The notes under the pieces were generated by a model, which saw only the letters and a list, made by a program, of their open reading frames with translations, searched no databases and was not told the origin of the DNA. From contig CAVUEU010000004.1 of NCBI GenBank assembly GCA_963740595.1, positions 201,777-265,776 on the forward strand: 64,000 nucleotides of DNA, in the 5' to 3' direction. This DNA is from an uncultured Gemmatimonadales bacterium (GTDB taxonomy: Bacteria > Gemmatimonadota > Gemmatimonadetes > Longimicrobiales > Gaopeijiaceae). The translations under genes and the position numbers were made by a program. The first letter of the stretch is position 1, and each line of letters opens with the position of its first letter. Below are positions 14,204 to 23,567 of the stretch, piece after piece.

Positions 14204-17200
14204 CTACGGAACCGACAGCATCACCGGCGCCGTGAAGTCGCTGTTGCCCGCCTGGATCTGGATCCACACGGGACCCGTTGCCAGCGTCGGCACGGCGACC
14301 TCGACCCGGAGGCCGGTGGCGGCATTGGCGGACGCGGTTCCGGCGCCGACGCTCGTGCCGGCGCACGTCGGCCCCGTCGTCGGTGCGGTTCCCTGCGTGA
14401 AGCACACCGTGGTGCCGGTCGTGTAGATGCCGTAGCCCTGGATGTAGATCGTGCTGCCGCCGGTGACGCTGGTGGCGGGCGCGGCGTCCAGGATGTTGGA
14501 GAACACGCCCACGAGCTCCGGCGTGCCGTACGTCGCGCCGAGCGTGAGCGTGATGGTGTTGCTCGCAATTCCCGTGCCCTGGTCCACGACGCGCACGTCG
14601 TACGTACCAGCAGCCAGCCCGGAGGGCGGCAGCACGTACTGCGCGCCACTCGTGCTGGGGGGCAGGAAGGTGAACCCGTTGGACGTGGCCATCGTGCTGG
14701 TGTTCGTGAACTGCCACTGCGTGTCGTTCATGTCGGCGCCGAAGAAGGTCAGCGCCTGGTCGAGGCCCGCCGAGGGCGACGGGACCACCGAGCCGATGCT
14801 CGGCGCCGTCACCACCGTCACGCAGTTCGAGAGCTCGGACGTGCTTCCGTCCGGATGCGTGAGCGTGGCGGTCACGACCGTTCCGACCGGGAGCTGCGGG
14901 CTGATGGTGGTCGAGAAGGTGACCTCGCCGCTCCCGTTCGTGGCCGGCGTCGTGAAGAGCTTCACCGGGGTCGCTCCCTCGCCGTAGCCACTGGCGTTGC
15001 AGGACGGGCTGGCGAAGACCTCCATCTCGTACGCCGTGCCCGCCTCGCCCTGGACGGTTCCCGTCTGCAGAGTGGTGACGCCTCCGCCGTTGGCCACGGA
15101 CGCCAGCAGCGGCCAGTTCTGGAGGCCGTTCGGCCCCGTGTCCGCGTCCAGCGCGTCGTTGGCGGTCACGTTGTCCCACCCCAGGTCGATGCCCAGGGCG
15201 TTGCCGGACATGGAGTTGGCGCGGAAGGTGTTGCCCGATCCGGCTGGAGCGTTCAAGGCGATCGCCGCTCCGCTGTTGCCCTCGAGTGTGTTGTCCTCGA
15301 TCGAGTTCCCGGCCGCTCCATCCGAGACGAAGATGCCGGCGAACGCCGTGTTGCCCGAGATCGTGTTGGCCGTCACCACCCCGTTCGTGGTGCCGTAGAG
15401 CGCGATGCCGCCGTCGCCGTCGTTGGGCAGATAGCCGCTTCCGCCCACGTCCACGCCGATGTCGTTGCCCTCGACGAGGATGCCGGGCGCCGTCCCGATC
15501 CAGAGACCGGTGTGGTTCCCGGAGACGAGGTTGCCCGCTGCGGGCCCCGTGCCTCCGACGACGACGTTGGTGGCCGTGCCCACGAAGATGCCGCTGTGGC
15601 AGCAGCCTTGCGCATCGGGCGACGTGAGGACGCGCCCGTTGCCGATCGCCGCGTTCCCGCCGGCGTTCGTGCCCACGAGGTTGCCCACGATCGTCACGTC
15701 CGACACGCCATTCGCGACCGCGACGCCGTCGCTCAGGTTGCCGGAGATCACGTTGCCGGTGCCGGCGCTCGTTCCGCCGATCGTCACGCCACTCGAGCCG
15801 CCGCCCGTCACGTTGATGCCGTCGGCGCCCTGCGTCCCGTTCCCGCGCTCGGCGTTGCCCGAGGGATCGGTGCCGACACGGTTCGCCTGGACGAGCACGC
15901 CCGTGGCGGTTCCGAGCACCTGGATGCCGTGGCCCGTGTTGCCCGACACCACATTCCCGTGGCCGGGGGTCCCGATGAGCGTGTTGGGCGCGTTGTTGAT
16001 GCGGACGCCGCCGAGCAGGTTGCCGCGCTCGACCGGTCCCCAGTTGACGCTGTTGATGTCGATGACGTCGGTCAGTCCGCGGCGGACGACGTCTCCGTTG
16101 TCGGAGAGCCCGATCGTGTTGTCGACGATCCGCGTGCCGGTCACGGGCGCGAGCGGCCCCGATTGCTGGATGTCGATCCCGTACTGGTCGTTCCCGGTGA
16201 TCAGGTTGCCCGTGATCACCGTGTTGCTCGAGCCGTCGTACATCGTGACGCCGGTCCACTGGTTCGGGAGCGGCGTGCTGCCGTCGGGCGCGAGGCCGAT
16301 GGTGTTTCCGGAGATGGTGTCGTTCGCGCTACCCTGGACCAGGATCCCGTTCTGGACGTTGCCGGAGATCACGTTGTCGGCCACGGCGCTGGTGGAGCTC
16401 AGCAGGCGGATGCCCGCGTTCGCGTTGCCTTTTCCGCTCGCGCCGGCCGCGTCCGTGCCGATCGTGTTGCCGACGATGTGGACGTTGCTCAGGCCGGACT
16501 CGGCGAACACGCCGTCCAGCGTGTGCTGCGTGATCGCGAGGCCGCGGATCGTCGTGTTGCTCGCCTGGACGTGGAAGCCGTATCCGCCGGCGCCGGCGCC
16601 GTTCACCTCCACCACCGGCGCGCTGCCGTAGCCCGGCTGGCTGAAGCCGTCCACGAGCGCCTCGTCGGTGATCGCGGGGAGTGCCGAGGAGAGGTTGATG
16701 ACCCAGGGTGGCGAGCCGGGGATCGCGAAGGTGATGGTGTCGAGCCCCGGCGCCGCGTTCGCGTCGAGGATCGCCTGGCGCAGCGAGCCGGCCCCGGCGT
16801 CGTCGGCGTTGACGACGGGCGTCGGGCCTCCGCCCACGCCGTTCACGGTCACCGTGTACGGGCTGCCGCCGATCGGTCCGAGCCCCACCCCGTCGTTGCG
16901 GATCAGCACGATGGCGACGTGGTCGGTTCCCGCCGAGGTGGCGGTGTAGCTGCCGTGGTACATCCCGCCGCCGTCGTCGGTGGCGATGAACGAGGCCGAG
17001 TTGGCGCCGGAGACGGTCACGTCGAGGGTGTCCCCGGAGAGAAGGAAGTCCTGCCCCAGGGCGTTCTTCACCTGGATCGTGATGGGCACCGGGTCACCGG
17101 CGTCCACGGTTGCGGGGACCACCGCTCCGGTCTGCGCTGCGCTCGGTCCGAGCGCGCTGCCGAACGTGCTGAAGGCGCCTACGGCCGCGCCGGGGCTCTT

Positions 17201-18358
17201 GACCACCGTGTTCAGACCGCCGTGCAGGCGGCGGCGTGCCGCGAGCGGCTGCGGCCCGAGGAGGTGGAGGACGTCCGCCGCGCCGCGACGCAGCATCCCC
17301 ATGACCCCCGGAGCCGGTGCGGGCGCGTAGCCCGCGCACTCGGGCGCCCCGAAGGTGCTCACGAGGCGCTGCGTCACGCCCTGGTGCACCTTGTAGAGGA
17401 TGAGCTGGGGGTGTAGCGGCTCGCCGACCCCCATCTGGTCCATCGCTACCTCGTCCTGACAGATGACGACGTTCACCCCGGGCCCGTTCGGGTCGACGTA
17501 GGCGTTCTCCGGGTAGGTCTTCACCTCGATGAAGAAGGGAAGCTCCTGGCTGTCGTCGGTCAGGACGTCGTGGCTCGGTGGCCCGACCACGGCGACCGAC
17601 AGGGTCACGTCCGGGAGGGGGTGGCCGTTCCCGTCGGTGAACACCCCGTCCGGTGCCGTGACCACGGCGCCGACCACCTGGTCGCCGCTGACGGTCTGCG
17701 CGGGTACAGTGACCGTGGTGGGGTGTCCGTCGCCGGGGATCTCGGTCCCGGTGGAGCAGCCGAGGGCCCCGCTGCTGCAGAGCGCGCCCTCCTCGATGCG
17801 GAACAGGATGGGGAAGAGGCCCAGATCCGAGATGGGGATCAGGTCCCCGTGATACGTGCGGATCTGTCTGAGGGCGAGGACCGCGACGTCCGCATGCCCG
17901 AGCTCCACGTCCTGGATGAGCACGCGGATGCGGTACGTGCCGTTGCGCTTGGGGCGATGCAGGGCCATCCACCACACCACGCCGTACTCCTTCGTCCGTG
18001 GACCCACGTCGACCCGGTCCGCGAGCCGGTGCGCGTCCGTGGTGAAGCGAGCCAGGAGCGGGCGGCCTGCGGCGCAGCCGCCCGGGGCGTTCACGTCACG
18101 CTCGCAGATCTCGACGATCGGGTGTTGGCTGCCGTCGGCGACGCCGGGGAAATCCCTGAACTGGGTTCCCAGCGGAGGAAGCCAGAAGAAGTGCTGATTG
18201 CCCGCGGCCATGTGGCCGTCGAGTACGTCGAGGGCAGGCTGGGGGAGGCCGGCGGGCGCCTGGTCCGGCGTCTCCACCTCCGTGGGCTGGTCCGTACAGG
18301 AGGCGAGCACAAGAAGCGCCAGCGAGCTGAGCGCGAACGCACGTGTGCGGGGTTTCAT
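14204..18358 (-). CDS. large (1384 aa) secreted lipoprotein with right-handed parallel beta-helix repeats and Ig/IPT-like domains
   Basis: Signal peptide with lipobox [20 protein letters not shown]|C. It has a '[25 protein letters not shown]' cap motif (CSLREA-type) and a long run of PbH1-like repeats ([61 protein letters not shown]). The C-terminal domains look Ig/IPT-like. Two large overlapping ORFs (13994-17416 +, 13848-16259 -) are shadows. Confidence 0.85.
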
Positions 18359-18477: not shown

Positions 18478-20319
18478 CTACCTGCCGATAAGGTGCCGGA
18501 ACTCGGGGTCGTCCTGCAGATCGCGCCACCACCAGTGGGAGGTCCACCGCCATCCCGCCCGGTGCTCCGGACTCGCCGTCAGGTAGACGCGGAGGCGCTC
18601 GACGGCGGTCTTCTTGTCGTCCAGCGCGAGCCAGTCGAGCGCCTCGATTCCCAGGAGCTCACGCTCGGGATCGATGTCCGGCCCGGCCTTCGAGCGCGCG
18701 ATCACGGCCTTCGCGCTGTCGGGCATCTGGGCGCGCGCCAGCACCCCTGCGACCAGGAGCTGGTCCTGGATGCGGGTCCAGGGGCGGGACGCCTCCGGGA
18801 GCATCGCGAGGTGGCTGTCCATCACCTTCCACGCGCTGTCCGGCTCGGGGGTGAGCGCCCGCGGCGCCGCCATCAACCAGAGCGTGCACTCGGTGAAGGT
18901 GGGGTTGTCCGGAAAGCGGTGGTGCCCCTGCTCGCAATACCGGATCGCCTCGCGGAACTGCTCCAGGTCGTACGAAGTCGCGTAGAGCCGGGTCAGCACC
19001 GACTCCGCGGAGCGCAGGAACTCGTCCGCCTCGAGGGCCCGACGGGCGGCGAGGTTGGCGCCGACCTGGTCGGGGATCTGCGAGTACACCACGCTCAGGG
19101 TGTTCCATGCCGACGCGAGCTGCGGATCCAGCGTGGTCGCCTGGTCGAGCTCGTCCTTGGCATCCTTGAAGACGCTGTCGGCCGTCTGGGGGTCCGGAGT
19201 GAGGCCGAGCGCCCAGCGCTGATATTGCACGGTGCCGCGTATCTGATGCGCGATGGCGTAGCGCGGGTCGCGTGCCAGCGACGAGTCCGCGAGCGCGAGC
19301 GCCCGCTCGAGATAGGTCCGTCCCTCGACGGGATCGTCCTGGGCGGACAGGCCTCCCCATCGGCTGGCGACCACGGCCCGGTAGGCGAGGGGAGCCGCCC
19401 AGCGCGGGTCCAGGCTCTCGGCGAGCGTGAAAAAGGAATCCGCCTGCTGGGCCTGGGCCGTGAAGGCCTGCAGGTTCTGGCGCTGCGCGCTCTCGTCGGC
19501 GTCCCGTCGGCTCCGCTGCCCCCGGAGGAAGGCGGTCCACGCCTGCACGTTCGTCGTCCCCAGGCGGGCTTCCCGGACCGAGATCTCCTCGCCCAGCGCC
19601 CCCCTCAGGAAGTCCACCACCTCGTCGGTGAGCTCGTCCTGCAGCGCGAGCACGTCGTCCGCCGGGCGCTCGACCGACCCCCGCTTCAGCTCGGCGCCGC
19701 TGTCACCGTCGACGAGCGAGAGGCTCACCTTGACCTTGCTCCCGCTCCGTTCGACGGATCCGTCGATCAGGATTCCCGCGGAGAGCAGCGAGCCGATGCT
19801 GTCGAGGGAGAGCGAGGCGTCGCGGAACTGCGCCGCGCCGTCCTTCGAGATCACGGTGAGCCCGCTGACCTGCCCCAGTCGATCGATGAGCGACTCGGTG
19901 AGACCGTCCGCGAGGTAGGCCAGATCGCGACTCCTCGACTGGTCACGGAAGTACAGGACGGCCACCCTGCGGAGGTCCAGGCCGCCCTGCGCGAGCTCCA
20001 GCCGTGCGCGTACGGCGGCGCGGGCGGATTCCCACGTCCGGTAGCCGAACCAACCGGTTCCCAGGGCGATGATCACCAGGAGCCATATCTCCACCGGCGT
20101 GGCGCTCTGGTGGCCCTTCTCGCCGTGGAACCAGCCGGTGACGACGCTCACGGCGAAGCCGCCGATGAAGAGCACCAGGGCGAGCCGGTAGATCAGCTCC
20201 GGGAGGATCCCCCGTTCCACGAGCGCGCCGACGACCTCGGTGGCGACCCACCCCGAAACCAGGTAGGAGGCCGCGATCTGGACGATGCGGCGCTGTCGGA
20301 GCTGCTCGAAGAAGGTCAC
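18478..20319 (-). CDS. membrane-anchored TPR-repeat protein (N-terminal 2-TM anchor + alpha/beta module + TPR-like C-terminus)
   Basis: GTG start at 20319. It has the N-terminal motif FFEQLRQRRIVQIAASYLVSGWVATEV plus a second TM helix. Next comes RVAVLYFRDQSRSRDLAYLADGLTESLIDRLGQVSGLTVIS (a TolB-N/CsgG-like fold pattern), then helical repeats of TPR character. Composition is balanced, whereas the antisense ORF 18493-20436 is Arg/Gly-rich. Confidence 0.75.
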   Translation of the reverse strand: MTFFEQLRQRRIVQIAASYLVSGWVATEVVGALVERGILPELIYRLALVLFIGGFAVSVVTGWFHGEKGHQSATPVEIWLLVIIALGTGWFGYRTWESARAAVRARLELAQGGLDLRRVAVLYFRDQSRSRDLAYLADGLTESLIDRLGQVSGLTVISKDGAAQFRDASLSLDSIGSLLSAGILIDGSVERSGSKVKVSLSLVDGDSGAELKRGSVERPADDVLALQDELTDEVVDFLRGALGEEISVREARLGTTNVQAWTAFLRGQRSRRDADESAQRQNLQAFTAQAQQADSFFTLAESLDPRWAAPLAYRAVVASRWGGLSAQDDPVEGRTYLERALALADSSLARDPRYAIAHQIRGTVQYQRWALGLTPDPQTADSVFKDAKDELDQATTLDPQLASAWNTLSVVYSQIPDQVGANLAARRALEADEFLRSAESVLTRLYATSYDLEQFREAIRYCEQGHHRFPDNPTFTECTLWLMAAPRALTPEPDSAWKVMDSHLAMLPEASRPWTRIQDQLLVAGVLARAQMPDSAKAVIARSKAGPDIDPERELLGIEALDWLALDDKKTAVERLRVYLTASPEHRAGWRWTSHWWWRDLQDDPEFRHLIGR

Positions 20320-20562
20320 GCTGCGGTCCCGGGCCGTACCTGGACTGTGGGGGCTCAGCCGACCGGCGAAGCTGCGGTCGGATGGCTCGGGTTGTCAAAC
20401 ACACATCGCGCGCGGGCGCGCACGCGACGCCGCTGAGACGAGGGCGCGAACACCCGGGTGCAAATGGCGTGGATGCGGGACGCGGGCCGCCATCGCCCCG
20501 AGCGATGATGGAGGCGCATGAGCCACAGCGCGACTCCATCCAGCACGTGGGAGGGCCCACAC

Positions 20563-22839
20563 ATGGCGAGAGGAAAGGACGAAGGGGGCAAGGACGCCGC
20601 GAGGTTCACGCTCGAAATTCCCCTGGACGCCTCCGGCCTGGAGACCGTGGCCGCCGACGCGCGGGAGCAGGAGGTACGCGTCGTCGCGCAGGACCGCTCC
20701 GGGGGCCTCCACGGCACCTCGGTGAAGCTGACCGCCGGCGAGGAGGCGAAGGCGAGTCTCACGTTCGACGCCCATCCGGGCGCCCTGCGCATCGCGATCG
20801 GGCCGGCCGCGGCCACGGACGACGAGGTGATGGGCCTTCAGACGCTCACCACGGACGTGGCGACAAGGAAGTGGGGAGGCGAGGCGACCCTCGCCCTTCC
20901 TCCGATCGTCGTGTCGTCGTACTGGTGGTGGTGGTGGTGGCGCTGGTGCCGGACCTTCACCGTCCGTGGCCGGGTCACGTGTCCGGACGGGAGCCCGGTG
21001 CCGGGTGCCGAGGTCTGCGCGTTCGACGTCGACTGGTGGTTCCTGTGGAGCAGCCAGCAGCAGGTAGGCTGCGCGACCACGAATCTCGACGGCACCTTCG
21101 AGATCACCTTCCGTTGGTGCTGTGGCTGGTGGCCCTGGTGGTGGTGGCGGAGGCGTGTGTGGAGGATCGACGACCTGCTGGCGGGTCAGATCCACGACGT
21201 GCTGCGGGTCCGTCCCGACCTCGAGCTGGCACGCGTCGGCCAGCAGCCCAGCCTCGCCGCCTTCGAGCACGTCCTCGGTGACGAGACGCTGCGCCGGGCC
21301 CGCACCGTCCGAGCGGCGGACGTCGACGCGCTTCCGGGGCTGCGCGACCGGCTCCTGGCGGTGCTGCCGAAGGCTCCGCAGCTCGAGGCGTTCCACGTCT
21401 GGCCGTGGTATCCGTGGCGGCCTTGGTGGGACTGCGCTCCCGATCTGATCTTCCGGGTCACGCAGGACTGCGACCAGCCCGGCCAGGTGATCCTCCAGGA
21501 GACCATCTTCGACACGCGCTGGAACGTCGATCCGCTGACGACGGTCAACCTGGTGGTGTCCGACGAGGCCTGCTGTGTGCCGCGGTGCCCCACGCATCCG
21601 TGCGACGAGCTCGACTGCCTCGTGCTCGACACCGTGTGCGGGAACCCGTTCACGAACGTGGGCGGGAATCCGGGTGCCGCCCCGACGCCGGTCGGATACC
21701 TGAGCCCAGGGCCCGTGCCGGCGGACACCACCACGCACCACCGGGCGTTCGGCGGCGTGATCCCGATCGACAAGAACCCCGACGACCTCGCGGGCGTCGA
21801 CTACTACGAGATCGAGGTCTTCGACGACGACCCGATGGTGCTGGACTGGGTTCCGCTGCCCCCGGGCGCCGAGGTCGACTTCAATCGGCGCTACTGGGAC
21901 CTCTTCAACGTGCCCCACAACAACCCGGCCCTGTTCAAGTTCCAGGACATCGCCGGTCACCGCGTGGTGGAGACCCGCCGGCACTTCGAGGAGAACGACC
22001 CGCTCAAGTGGCCGGACGAGCCGGGCGGTGGGGCGACCACCGCGATCTGGCTGTCGACGAACTACAGCCTCCTCCTCCCCCTCGACACGACGGCGTTCCC
22101 CGACGGGACCTATCGGTTCCGTGTGGTCGGCTGGGAGGAGGGTGGGCCGATGGGGCTGCAGAATCGGAGGGTCATCCCCGTGTGCGGAAGCGAGGACGAC
22201 AACGAGTTCGTCCTCACCTTCGACAACCGGGTGACCAACGCGGCGGCGGCGCACGACCCGACCCACAACTGCGGGATGGGCGTCCATCTGTGCACCACGG
22301 AGCCCGATAGCCACATCTCCGCGGTCCGGGTGAACGGGGTGCAGGTCGACCCGTGCGACAACATCGCGTACGACTCCGACGCTACGGTCGAGATCGACTT
22401 CCTGGCGCGTGACGACGACGACCACCTGGGCTACTACGTGCTCGAGGCGAGTTGGGGGCTGAACCAGACCGTGAATCTGCTCGACCGGCCCGCCGCGTCC
22501 GTCACGCCGGTGGTGGTGGGGACACCGACCGGCTGGGCGGCCGGCCAGAGCACGGGCAACTACGGCACGGCGCTCACGCAGGGAGCCGTGGCCCCGCACT
22601 GGACCGGTGGTCGCTACACGCTGTCCGTTCCGCTCGCCGAGGCGTTCCCCGAGCCCTGCTGCTATCAGCTCGAGCTCAGGGCGTTCAAGCGGGTGGTCGT
22701 CGGGTACGGCAGCGGCTGCTACGGCTACGTCGTGAGTCAGAACGGCAACCGTACGGAGTACTCGCTCGGGGTCGGCGTGTGTGGGCCGTCGGTGATCGCG
22801 GCGACGCCGATCCAACTGCCGGCGGTGACGCCCGGCTGA
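20563..22839 (+). CDS. hypothetical 758-aa protein with extreme Trp/Cys-rich segment and CarboxypepD_reg-like beta-sandwich
   Basis: ATG 20563 is preceded by GGGAGGG, 8 nt upstream (the track start 20518 is also possible). The sequence contains SSYWWWWWWRWC, DVDWWFLWSS, FRWCCGWWPWWWWRRRVW and FHVWPWYPWRPWWDC. VRGRVTCPDGSPVPGAEVCAF...TTNLDGTFEI resembles a carboxypeptidase-regulatory-like domain. The rest is rich in D/E/N/F/Y/T (a protein-like composition), while the antisense ORF 20395-23010 is an Arg/Pro shadow. I see no signal peptide. Confidence 0.8.
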   Translation: MARGKDEGGKDAARFTLEIPLDASGLETVAADAREQEVRVVAQDRSGGLHGTSVKLTAGEEAKASLTFDAHPGALRIAIGPAAATDDEVMGLQTLTTDVATRKWGGEATLALPPIVVSSYWWWWWWRWCRTFTVRGRVTCPDGSPVPGAEVCAFDVDWWFLWSSQQQVGCATTNLDGTFEITFRWCCGWWPWWWWRRRVWRIDDLLAGQIHDVLRVRPDLELARVGQQPSLAAFEHVLGDETLRRARTVRAADVDALPGLRDRLLAVLPKAPQLEAFHVWPWYPWRPWWDCAPDLIFRVTQDCDQPGQVILQETIFDTRWNVDPLTTVNLVVSDEACCVPRCPTHPCDELDCLVLDTVCGNPFTNVGGNPGAAPTPVGYLSPGPVPADTTTHHRAFGGVIPIDKNPDDLAGVDYYEIEVFDDDPMVLDWVPLPPGAEVDFNRRYWDLFNVPHNNPALFKFQDIAGHRVVETRRHFEENDPLKWPDEPGGGATTAIWLSTNYSLLLPLDTTAFPDGTYRFRVVGWEEGGPMGLQNRRVIPVCGSEDDNEFVLTFDNRVTNAAAAHDPTHNCGMGVHLCTTEPDSHISAVRVNGVQVDPCDNIAYDSDATVEIDFLARDDDDHLGYYVLEASWGLNQTVNLLDRPAASVTPVVVGTPTGWAAGQSTGNYGTALTQGAVAPHWTGGRYTLSVPLAEAFPEPCCYQLELRAFKRVVVGYGSGCYGYVVSQNGNRTEYSLGVGVCGPSVIAATPIQLPAVTPG
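20923..20940 (+). repeat. perfect (TGG)6 trinucleotide repeat encoding six consecutive Trp
   Basis: Read directly: tac tgg tgg tgg tgg tgg tgg cgc tgg tgc. A second W cluster (tgg tgg ccc tgg tgg tgg tgg) lies at 21127-21147. Confidence 0.95.
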
Positions 22840-22960
22840 GGCGAGCAGAGCGGACCGGCGCGACCCGACGTCGCGTCGTGCCAGCTCGAACAGGGGGCCG
22901 GTCGTCCGACGGGCGGCCGGCCCCCGACCAGGGAGCAGTGTACCCGCGGGAGGGCGATCG

Positions 22961-23311
22961 ATGACATGGTACGGGCTGGTGGTGGGGACGCTCGCGGTGT
23001 GGCGCGTCACCCACCTGCTCGAGGCCGAGGACGGGCCCGGCGACGTGATCGTGCGCCTGCGTTCGCTGGCGGGGGCGGGCTTCTGGGGGAGGGTGCTCGA
23101 CTGCTTCTACTGCCTGAGCCTCTGGACGGCCGCGCCGGCGGCGGTGCTCATCGGCGGAACTCCGACGGAGAAGCTGCTCCTTTGGCCGGCGCTGTCCGGC
23201 GGGGCGATCCTGCTGGAGCGCCTGACGGCGGGCGATGGAGATCGCGCCGCGGCGCTCTACCACGAGGACGAACACGACGAGGAGGACTTCGATGGGATGC
23301 TGCGGAGGTAG
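22961..23311 (+). CDS. DUF1360-like small membrane protein
   Basis: MTWYGLVVGTLAVWRVTHLLEAEDGPGDVIVRLR...LDCFYCLSLWTAAPAAV shows a W-R-x-T-x-L motif, then a C-x-x-C-x-S-x-W motif, then a second TM. That is the pattern I associate with DUF1360. The tail is acidic. Confidence 0.6.
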   Translation: MTWYGLVVGTLAVWRVTHLLEAEDGPGDVIVRLRSLAGAGFWGRVLDCFYCLSLWTAAPAAVLIGGTPTEKLLLWPALSGGAILLERLTAGDGDRAAALYHEDEHDEEDFDGMLRR

Positions 23312-23567
23312 TCGGCGCGCGGCGGCCGGGGCGGGGCGCGCACCGGTGACGGGGTCGCGCCCTGCCGATCGGACGAGCGCGTCCGAGGCACGGCGCCTCT
23401 CCCACGCGTACTTCGCATACGTGGGTCGCACCGGCCTAACGGTCGTCGGCCCGCGGACCGGGCGGACGTACCGGTTCGCAGGACCCGGGCAGGTGGTCGC
23501 GGTCGACCCGGCGGATCGACGCGGGCTCGCGACGGTTCCCCAGCTCAGGCAGGTGGCGAGGCCGTAG
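23292..23567 (+). CDS. small hypothetical protein (91 aa) starting MGCCGG
   Basis: ATG 23292 overlaps the last 20 nt of the DUF1360-like gene in another frame. The core is YFAYVGRTGLTVVGPRTGRTYRFAGPGQVVAVDPADRRGLATVPQLR. It looks like a conserved small beta-rich domain, but I cannot name a family. Confidence 0.4.
   Translation: MGCCGGSRRAAAGAGRAPVTGSRPADRTSASEARRLSHAYFAYVGRTGLTVVGPRTGRTYRFAGPGQVVAVDPADRRGLATVPQLRQVARP

Follow-up and report, generated by a model that had tools for sequence, protein, structure and literature searches.

The 64-kb window analysed here (64,000 nucleotides (nt) of contig CAVUEU010000004.1 from an uncultured Gemmatimonadales bacterium; positions below are counted from its first letter) contains a gene, designated gene A, whose protein product carries three segments extremely rich in tryptophan (Trp) and set among conserved cysteines (Cys). 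These segments, designated W1, W2 and W3, were found to be retained almost without change in a protein family spread over at least 12 phyla, as counted on species-representative genomes, and gene A is mostly accompanied by two conserved downstream partner genes, B and C, which the first-pass annotation of this DNA had missed. Since Trp stretches are rare in bacterial proteomes, and yet these are near-invariant over such a range of phyla, they must do something specific. Protein A, the DUF1360-type CxxC protein B and the mini-protein C, which begins with M-x-C-C-G, constitute a three-gene system that is apparently undescribed. We propose, with a probability of about 0.4, that the three products form a membrane-peripheral complex in which a disulfide-stapled belt of Trp, Arg and Pro residues in A docks at the bilayer, at B, or at both.

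The Trp runs described in the first-pass annotation are real. A perfect (TGG)6 lies exactly at positions 20923-20940 and is the sole TGG run of more than four units within the window, and the quoted strings SSYWWWWWWRWC, DVDWWFLWSS, FRWCCGWWPWWWWRRRVW and FHVWPWYPWRPWWDC were all confirmed in protein A. The protein has 33 Trp in total, and 24 of them fall within the 186 residues 104-289 (12.9%), compared with a background of 1.75% over the 13,399 residues of the other open reading frames (ORFs) of the window; the binomial probability of this enrichment is about 5e-14, and a run of six Trp has an expectation of about 3e-11 per site. As Trp has a single codon, WWWWWW can only be encoded by (TGG)6. 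Among homorepeats in surveyed bacterial strains, polyW is one of the two rarest types (PMC8004648).

Gene A is a real coding gene and is vertically conserved. Its start was set at 20563 because the aligned homologues all start at the equivalent Met, because a Shine-Dalgarno-like GGGAGGG is located 8-10 nt before this position, and because the stretch upstream is short and polar: the in-frame alternative ATG at 20518 would add 15 polar, non-conserved residues, and a stop codon lies further upstream. The guanine-plus-cytosine (GC) content at codon positions 1, 2 and 3 is 0.67, 0.50 and 0.91, respectively, and is uniform over the length of the gene, so that the earlier coding call is upheld by the third codon position as well as by the homologues and the Shine-Dalgarno-like site. 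The same annotation had dismissed the ORF on the opposite strand as a shadow. This antisense ORF of 871 codons (20395-23010, minus strand) spans the whole gene, and its values of 0.90, 0.53 and 0.68 are the mirror image of those of A; it is therefore a high-GC shadow ORF and no gene.

Homologues of A were collected by a word-indexed search at E<=1e-3 and by exhaustively searching 1.84 billion representatives with HMMER. At least 712 homologues were returned by the word-indexed search, nearly all of 700-790 amino acids (aa), with an end-to-end identity to A of 44-74% for the 120 best matches listed; the HMMER search extended the range to 30% and gave 345 clusters at 50% identity. The first-pass annotation had made the interest of the protein hinge on such homologues, and they exist and keep the Trp clusters. 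In the databases they are named either 'hypothetical' or 'carboxypeptidase regulatory-like domain-containing'. Carriers belong to the Chloroflexota, Gemmatimonadota, Acidobacteriota, Actinomycetota, Alpha-, Beta- and Gammaproteobacteria, Desulfobacterota, Myxococcota, Bacteroidota, Ignavibacteria, Verrucomicrobiota and Thermaceae, and nearly all are metagenome-assembled genomes (MAGs) of uncultured soil, sediment and water bacteria. The sole cultured carrier found was Pelagibius marinus NBU2595 (NZ_JACSDK010000020.1, locus L066, 5815-8166), which has an intact gene A containing FRWCCGWWPWWWWRHRFW.

The conserved motifs of the family are YYWxWWxRWCR, FRWCCGWWPWWWWR and WPWxPWxPWWDC, together with about 22 Cys, and conservation is densest at residues ~120-360. 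Among 159 full-length members, FRWCCGWWPWWWWR was present in 139 and [IV]WPW.PW.PWWDC in 144, and about 15 Trp and 18 Cys of A are at least 93% conserved in 233 aligned sequences. The Trp content of family members is 3.3-5.1% and shows no correlation with genome GC over the range 0.40-0.73 (r = -0.05), and the same FRWCCGWWPWWWW occurs in genomes at 40-50% GC; a GC-driven enrichment of Trp was rejected on the basis of the r value. Given the invariance of Trp and Cys and the lack of any tracking of GC, the motifs are under selection and do not reflect composition. Distant members (30-38% identity) retain WCC and DVDxWW with fewer Trp, so that the extreme Trp runs mark a large sub-family.

Within the family, the hexa-Trp run of the window protein is not a special device. 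The consensus of W1 is YYW[FWHY]WW[LRW]RWCR, in which W122, W125, W128 and C129 are each at least 93% conserved among the 233 aligned homologues, while positions 121 (Y replaced by W), 123 (F/W/H/Y) and 126 (L/R/W) are variable. The window protein has Trp at all three, and the run is this lineage's filling of the variable positions, which share one face of the W1 helix; the family-wide motifs are the real finding. The longest Trp run in the 159 full-length members comprises four residues in 109, five in 21, six in one (the window protein) and seven in one. There is no length change of W1 in the 233 full-length homologues aligned, no more than 4 rows being gapped at motif positions, and a relative at 86% identity reads SSYWWGWWWRWC (YWWGWWW), a point change at equal length. 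The constant length of the motif and the point-change difference among the nearest relatives leave the slippage and repeat-length variation envisaged by the first-pass annotation unsupported. Its concern that the run might be an assembly artefact was removed by an independent ENA assembly, P0272 (99% identical, same 90%-identity cluster, 490-kb contig), which carries the same WWWWWW of SSYWWWWWWRWC. In a JGI contig with a gene 86-88% identical to A, the gene is split by a frameshift into pieces of 294 and 473 aa (P0270/P0271). The frameshift lies inside the TGG-rich W3 (...WPWYPWRPGGTALPI / AWWDCAPD...), a homopolymer-like tract, and either stems from a sequencing error there or marks the gene as a pseudogene.

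Protein A was modelled by AlphaFold2 (AF2) both at full length, from a 23-sequence alignment (predicted local distance difference test (pLDDT) 73, predicted template-modelling score (pTM) 0.45), and as a separate domain covering aa 108-365 (pLDDT 78, pTM 0.74). The full-length model is all-beta and multi-domain (Table 1). Its N-terminus, MARGKDEGGKDAARF, is polar over the first ~14 residues, and P20, D22 and A23 of the PLDAS region in the domain that follows are invariant. In the domain model the pLDDT is ~80-93 for the sandwich and helices, ~80 for W3, ~61 for W2 and ~53 for W1. W1 stands directly before strand A, W2 directly after strand D and W3 directly before strand E of the transthyretin-like sandwich in these models, and the three segments are thereby predicted to frame its helical insertion. 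The CarboxypepD_reg-like beta-sandwich recognised in the first-pass annotation is a real match though a sub-threshold one, since Pfam PF13620 scores 22.9 bits on A against a cut-off of 32.3 (E 1e-4, aa 133-182, profile positions 1-43 of 82); several homologues carry a precomputed PF13620 match.

Comparisons of structure gave a similar picture. With the whole chain, Foldseek against the PDB returned generic tandem immunoglobulin (Ig)-like proteins only (antibodies, an adhesin repeat, alpha-2-macroglobulin), and a sequence-profile search of the PDB with A gave no match. For the Trp/Cys (W/C) module, the best PDB neighbours were weak and mostly prealbumin-like sandwiches, with template-modelling (TM) scores of 0.14-0.29 and a lipoxygenase as the top match (E 3e-4), and nothing was found among viral structures at E<=1e-3. 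The likeness to the CarboxypepD_reg/transthyretin group (PF13620, TTR-52) consists of the pattern RGRVxCxDGxPVPGAxV...D..G.F.I and a probable seven-stranded sandwich. The Foldseek matches of A to PF13620/transthyretin proteins cover about 50-90 columns at a probability of 0.9-1.0; those to transthyretin and TTR-52 reach a probability of 0.99-1.0 but extend over ~50-65 columns only, with a TMq of 0.14-0.17. Unlike members of PF13620, A falls below the cut-off, and it has a helical insertion of ~105 aa, three invariant Trp segments and eight conserved Cys. Intradiol dioxygenases (protocatechuate 3,4-dioxygenase, catechol and hydroxyquinol 1,2-dioxygenases, SACTE_2871) were also recurrent Foldseek matches (E ~4e-3 to 2e-2), some of the alignments spanning ~240-250 columns including helical parts. 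Such an identity of A was rejected in view of the TM-scores of 0.13-0.29, the lack of a Pfam dioxygenase match and the segment expected to hold the His ligands, which by eye reads PDLIF.

All 22 Cys of protein A are located at residue 129 or later, and 187 of the 233 homologues have no Cys in the first 128 residues. The number of Cys per structural unit is always even (8, 6, 4 and 4), and losses occur in pairs. C152 and C170 are missing jointly in 37 of 38 cases and C570 and C577 in 26 of 28; C129 (100%) and C140 (97%) are retained while C152 and C170 fall together to 84%; and the variable C342 and C347 of the Cys-rich loop tend to disappear together. In the alignment, such paired loss is the pattern expected of disulfides rather than of metal sites with three or four ligands. 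A candidate His/Cys metal site, HNCGxGVHxC (aa 568-577), was rejected, as its His residues are not conserved in the 233-sequence set. By inspection, no signal peptide or twin-arginine (Tat) motif was seen in A, in 23 aligned or in 13 distant homologues, the maximal in-frame N-terminal extension of A being 15 polar residues, and on this point the first-pass annotation was correct. The disulfide-like Cys and the absent export signal contradict each other, and this contradiction is the most interesting point of the family.

A role of W1 as a transmembrane signal-anchor would be attractive because all 22 Cys come after it. This candidate was rejected, together with the idea that the first Trp run spans the membrane, on several grounds. 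Residues 109-117 alternate between hydrophobic and polar (L/x/L/x/P/I/x/I) as in a beta-strand, Pro occurs at 114 and 119, and the predicted helix comprises only aa 119-127, about nine residues, where a bitopic membrane protein has a helix of at least about 18-20. The greater positive charge on the C-terminal side of W1 is a further counter-indication.

The surroundings of A were compared in 88 loci (the window, seven homologue contexts and 80 genome loci), in which all six-frame ORFs were searched with profiles of B and C. B adjoins A in 70 of the 88 loci, and 61 have C; several of the others are truncated by contig ends. The order is mostly A-B-C, with B-C-A in the Bryobacterales and A-C-B in some Actinomycetota, and the stop and start codons often overlap or sit a few nt apart. 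In the window each of the three genes has a GGAGG-like site 8-12 nt upstream, that of C being GAGGAGG. Two divergent C proteins obtained in a separate search again lay in A-B-C cassettes, one in a Bacteroidales MAG and the other in a JGI contig. All-versus-all clustering of the ORFs of the 88 loci revealed no conserved neighbours of A other than B, C, shadow ORFs and a SARP/BTAD-type regulator. The regulator occurs by A in nine loci, and in the three examined (L001, L004 and L013, all Chloroflexota) it is upstream on the opposite strand, with neither B nor C within 6 kb of A, which points to another arrangement of regulation and partners in this phylum. The gene A of Pelagibius marinus NBU2595 stands alone: the gene after it is convergent, and neither B nor C lies close by.

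Protein B has two invariant motifs, WR.THL..EDGP and DCFxCxSxW, the latter placing a CxxC where a hydrophobic segment begins. The B of the window scores 20.0 bits with the DUF1360 profile (PF07098), against a cut-off of 21, and the orthologue of locus L003 passes with 29.0 bits. The resemblance to DUF1360 proteins (Bacillus subtilis YjcA and the gp7/gp17 type of actinophages) lies in the size and the three hydrophobic segments, and B has in common with gp17 of Arthrobacter phage SilentRX the Arg of segment 1, the loop D..P and CxxCLSxW. As gp17 keeps CxxCLSxW, the CxxC belongs to the DUF1360 family at large. In contrast to other DUF1360 proteins, B falls in a sub-family that has its own invariant WR.THL..EDGP motif and is tied to genes A and C. 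No function was found in the literature on DUF1360 and yjcA, so the likeness yields no mechanism. The gp17 protein itself, DUF1360-like and 103 aa long, is encoded between the large terminase and portal genes (L090, 2974-3285). Two identities were considered for B and rejected. A thiol oxidase of the DsbB/VKOR type does not agree with three hydrophobic segments, a CxxC pair only and the lack of a Pfam or NCBIfam match to such a family; the analogy, a CxxC where a helix starts, is a speculative one of function. A holin would fit the size, the segments and the charged tail, but there is no hydrolase or other conserved neighbour, and the PHROG family matched is of unknown function.

Protein C, of ~85 aa, starts with M-[S/G/A/P/T or nothing]-C-C-G-x-x-R and ends in a beta-rich domain of ~50 aa with the pattern F.Y.G.T.LTV.GP.TG..YRF..PG..V.VD.RD...L..VP.LR, the two being joined by a variable linker. 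The start motif occurs in essentially every copy, and M1, C3 and C4 are invariant. The copies at the loci are 77-104 aa long, except for an ORF-derived copy of 124 aa at L042, probably due to a start set too early. The homologues, at least 452, are all of 80-104 aa, unnamed and free of fusions, and no Pfam match was obtained for C. At one locus, L020 (5989-8598), on the complete Solirubrobacterales chromosome OY970062.1, A and B form one ORF in which the C-terminus of A (...GVGVCPP) is kept and followed by a linker of ~40 aa. This ORF may be a natural fusion, which would support a physical association of the two proteins. An apparent A-B fusion at L083 was set aside, as it looks like a frameshift.

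Table 1. Genes A, B and C and the segments and domains of protein A, in window coordinates.
Feature	Position	Strand	Description
Gene A	20563..22839	+	758-aa Trp/Cys-rich multi-beta-sandwich protein of an unnamed conserved family
N-terminal Ig-like beta-sandwich (aa 15-111)	20605..20895	+	Cys-free; PLDAS motif; strands at pLDDT 78-91
W1, YWWWWWWRWCR (aa 120-130)	20920..20952	+	Holds (TGG)6; short predicted helix; pLDDT 53-76
Prealbumin/CarboxypepD_reg-like sandwich (strands aa 129-186, 295-331)	20947..21555	+	Split by a mostly helical insertion of ~105 aa (aa 187-294)
DVDWWFLW (aa 155-162), within the sandwich	21025..21048	+	D155, D157 at least 97% conserved; W/F at 159; W in 92% at 162
W2, FRWCCGWWPWWWWRRRVW (aa 183-200)	21109..21162	+	Conservation: C186, C187 100%; W194 95%; R198 96%; W200 99%
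W3, FHVWPWYPWRPWWDC (aa 277-291)	21391..21435	+	WxxWxxW spacing; pLDDT ~80
Cys-rich loop CCVPRCPTHPCDELDCLVLDTVC (aa 337-359)	21571..21639	+	C337, C338, C352, C359 96-99% conserved; pLDDT <50
C-terminal beta-sandwich domains (aa ~399-553, 582-740)	21757..22782	+	Cys sets 541/570/577/598 and 699/700/719/740
Gene B	22961..23311	+	116-aa DUF1360-type membrane protein; three hydrophobic segments
Gene C	23292..23567	+	91-aa protein; N-terminal MGCCGG; 20-nt overlap with the end of B

In the proposed complex, A would be made jointly with the dedicated partners B and C. The functional core of A would be a W/C module of ~230 residues, composed of the sandwich and the helical insertion framed by W1, W2 and W3, and the invariant Cys appear to staple the three segments together. 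The resulting aromatic belt, rich in possible cation-pi contacts, would lie in the bilayer interface, against the membrane segments of B, or both, and would keep the string of beta-sandwich domains next to the membrane. The Cys pairs of A would be disulfides in this complex, and B and C may use their Cys motifs to tether or oxidise A. We infer here the complex itself, the docking at the membrane, the disulfide bonds and what B and C contribute. The low pLDDT of W1 and W2 (53-66), compared with ~90 for the sandwich, would fit segments that need a membrane or a partner. The first-pass annotation had offered an interfacial anchor or wedge and a ligand-stacking module as alternatives; the former is favoured because of the membrane-protein partner B, and a packed or stacked arrangement is favoured because ~15 Trp are near-absolutely invariant.

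Several observations weigh against a membrane belt. Generic interfacial anchoring usually tolerates exchange among W, Y, F and L, while ~15 Trp of A are essentially invariant as Trp. W3 is placed with confidence in the model (pLDDT ~80), and both points fit a packed aromatic core at least as well. Neither a lipobox nor a recognisable C-terminal sorting domain was found in homologues of A, close or distant, and disulfide-like Cys in a protein having no export signal would call for an unknown export route, for oxidation after release, or for there being no disulfides at all. The Trp motifs are unchanged in Chloroflexota, in Pelagibius marinus and at some other loci where neither B nor C is encoded within 6 kb. 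The positive-inside rule leaves the topology of B unfixed, and the A-B ORF at L020 is a single case from a long-read MAG and could be due to an indel error.

The main alternative, which is possible but on the whole doubtful, is that the Trp clusters form a buried Trp-Arg-Cys ladder gluing the helical insertion to the sandwich, by analogy with the layered core of thrombospondin type-1 repeats or the WSXWS motif of cytokine receptors. A would in this case be a released or surface-bound chain of sandwiches, either adhesin-like or binding a glycan or other ligand, and B and C would only help its export or anchoring. A buried ladder agrees with the conservation of W125, W200 and W280 (98-99%), of R130 and R198, and of C186, C187 and C291 (100%). 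In W3, W280 and P281 (99%), W282 (96%), W285 (94%), W288 (97%) and D290 and C291 (100%) are all highly conserved, the WxxWxxW of W282, W285 and W288 has the spacing of such ladders, and an RxRxW follows W2. The pLDDT of W3, the loss of Cys in pairs, the resemblance of the whole chain to tandem-Ig adhesin repeats, and the location of the variable positions of W1 (123, 126 and 127) on one face of the helix with the invariant Trp on the other point the same way. The likeness to thrombospondin type-1 and WSXWS ladders, which also extends to the RxR beside W2 and to flanking conserved Cys, is however one at the level of motifs: membership of A in PF00090 was rejected, as neither this nor any other Pfam match to such a module was obtained at E<=1. 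Unlike thrombospondin repeats, A has far more Trp, and its Trp motifs frame an insertion in a prealbumin-like sandwich. According to a report on the Blastomyces BAD-1 repeats (PMC3708853), loops of this kind can be disulfide-constrained ligand binders. Against a buried ladder also stand the poor placing of W1 and W2 in the models, the missing export signal, and the membrane partner B, which a buried core alone leaves unexplained. The membrane belt and the buried ladder are not mutually exclusive.

It is unlikely that A is cytoplasmic and that the Cys of A, of B (CxxC) and of C (CC) are ligands of Zn, Cu or an Fe-S cluster, perhaps shared between subunits, with the Trp belt shielding or tuning the sites. 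The absence of a signal peptide throughout the family, as inspected, would be accounted for, and vicinal Cys pairs occur in A (186/187, 337/338 and 699/700) as well as in C; the Cys-rich loop 337-359 is unstructured in the model, which is of the apo form, and the family is found in strict anaerobes (Desulfobacterales, Anaerolineae, Bacteroidales). On the other hand, the strictly pairwise loss of Cys, with neighbouring Cys kept, is a pattern of disulfides, His near the Cys are not conserved in the wider family, and no metal-binding family was matched. Still less probable is a redox-active module containing Cys-Trp cross-links, a Trp-derived quinone cofactor or Trp residues for hole-hopping, with B and C as maturation or electron-relay partners. 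Invariant Trp do stand beside invariant Cys (W128-C129, W185-C186-C187, W288/289-D-C291), and the dedicated partners have CxxC and CC, but the idea is purely speculative. A shows no similarity to LodA/QHNDH-type proteins, and the conserved neighbours include no oxidase and no radical-SAM, flavin or haem protein. The view that the runs are an artefact or noise, arising from a spurious ORF, an error in assembling the TGG repeat or a slippage-prone contingency tract, is practically refuted. A perfect trinucleotide repeat of 18 nt could in principle slip, and the frameshift of P0270/P0271 did fall inside a TGG-rich segment; against this, the codon-position GC, the hundreds of full-length homologues, the identical run in an independent assembly, the absence of variation in motif length in 233 sequences and the single codon of Trp all speak for a genuine protein motif.

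A more far-reaching form of the membrane complex, which we regard as improbable, is that A, B and C are a self-contained, Sec-independent maturation system in which the CxxC of B and the CC of C act as a thiol relay. The relay would install disulfides or Cys-Trp cross-links in the signal-less module of A and fix it at the membrane. If this were true, DUF1360 proteins, including those of sporulation and of phages, would gain a first function as minimal membrane thiol oxidoreductases, and the Trp/Arg cluster would be an element that responds to redox state or light and does more than pack.

The segments WWPWWWWRRR and WPWYPWRPWW resemble the interfacial Trp/Pro/Arg peptides indolicidin and tritrpticin in local composition and spacing, a likeness that favours the membrane belt. 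The latter are free peptides of 13 residues, whereas the segments of A are embedded in a folded protein of 758 aa and are invariant over phyla, and there is no homology between them.

Scans of A, B and C against NCBIfam and PADLOC (the latter at E<=1) gave no match, and PHROGs gave a single one, of B to phrog_781 of unknown function (E 7e-6). A known anti-phage defence system was accordingly rejected for want of any PADLOC component among the three proteins. Tblastn searches with gene A were negative in 50,697 phage records, 72,556 plasmid records and 2.9 million viral contigs, and an origin of A from a prophage or plasmid, or as cargo of a mobile element, was rejected on this evidence. In the literature on Trp-rich carboxypeptidase-regulatory proteins, DUF1360, yjcA and polyW, no description of the family or of the cassette was found. 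We rate A-B-C as lying outside known systems, B being a DUF1360 relative, C new, and the module of A related by its fold to CarboxypepD_reg/transthyretin-like sandwiches. Caution is needed: Ig-like and prealbumin-like sandwiches are ordinary building blocks, the function is entirely conjectural, and A could be a mundane envelope scaffold. Family A nevertheless has hundreds of members and neither a curated model, a solved structure nor a name beyond 'carboxypeptidase regulatory-like', and its link to B in the cassette provides DUF1360 with a first functional handle. If the Cys are disulfides in a protein having no export signal, a clear question of cell biology arises, and the cultured Pelagibius marinus NBU2595 makes experiments on gene A possible.

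Upstream of A, on the minus strand of the window, are genes for a right-handed beta-helix/NosD-like protein of 1384 aa whose N-terminus is signal-like (14204-18358) and for a protein of 613 aa that has a hydrophobic segment at its N-terminus and weak TPR matches below threshold (18478-20319). Neither is conserved beside A in other genomes, and scans for Rfam families, tRNA genes, promoters and terminators around the locus of gene A gave nothing useful. Near the beginning of the window, on the plus strand, a 1104-aa CHAT-domain (caspase-like protease) protein (918-4232) is encoded adjacent to a 1034-aa protein (4242-7346) in which a CHAT domain is fused to a complete EF-Tu-like GTPase (GTP_EFTU with domains 2 and 3). 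Such an architecture is unusual and looks like that of a conflict or defence-type system.

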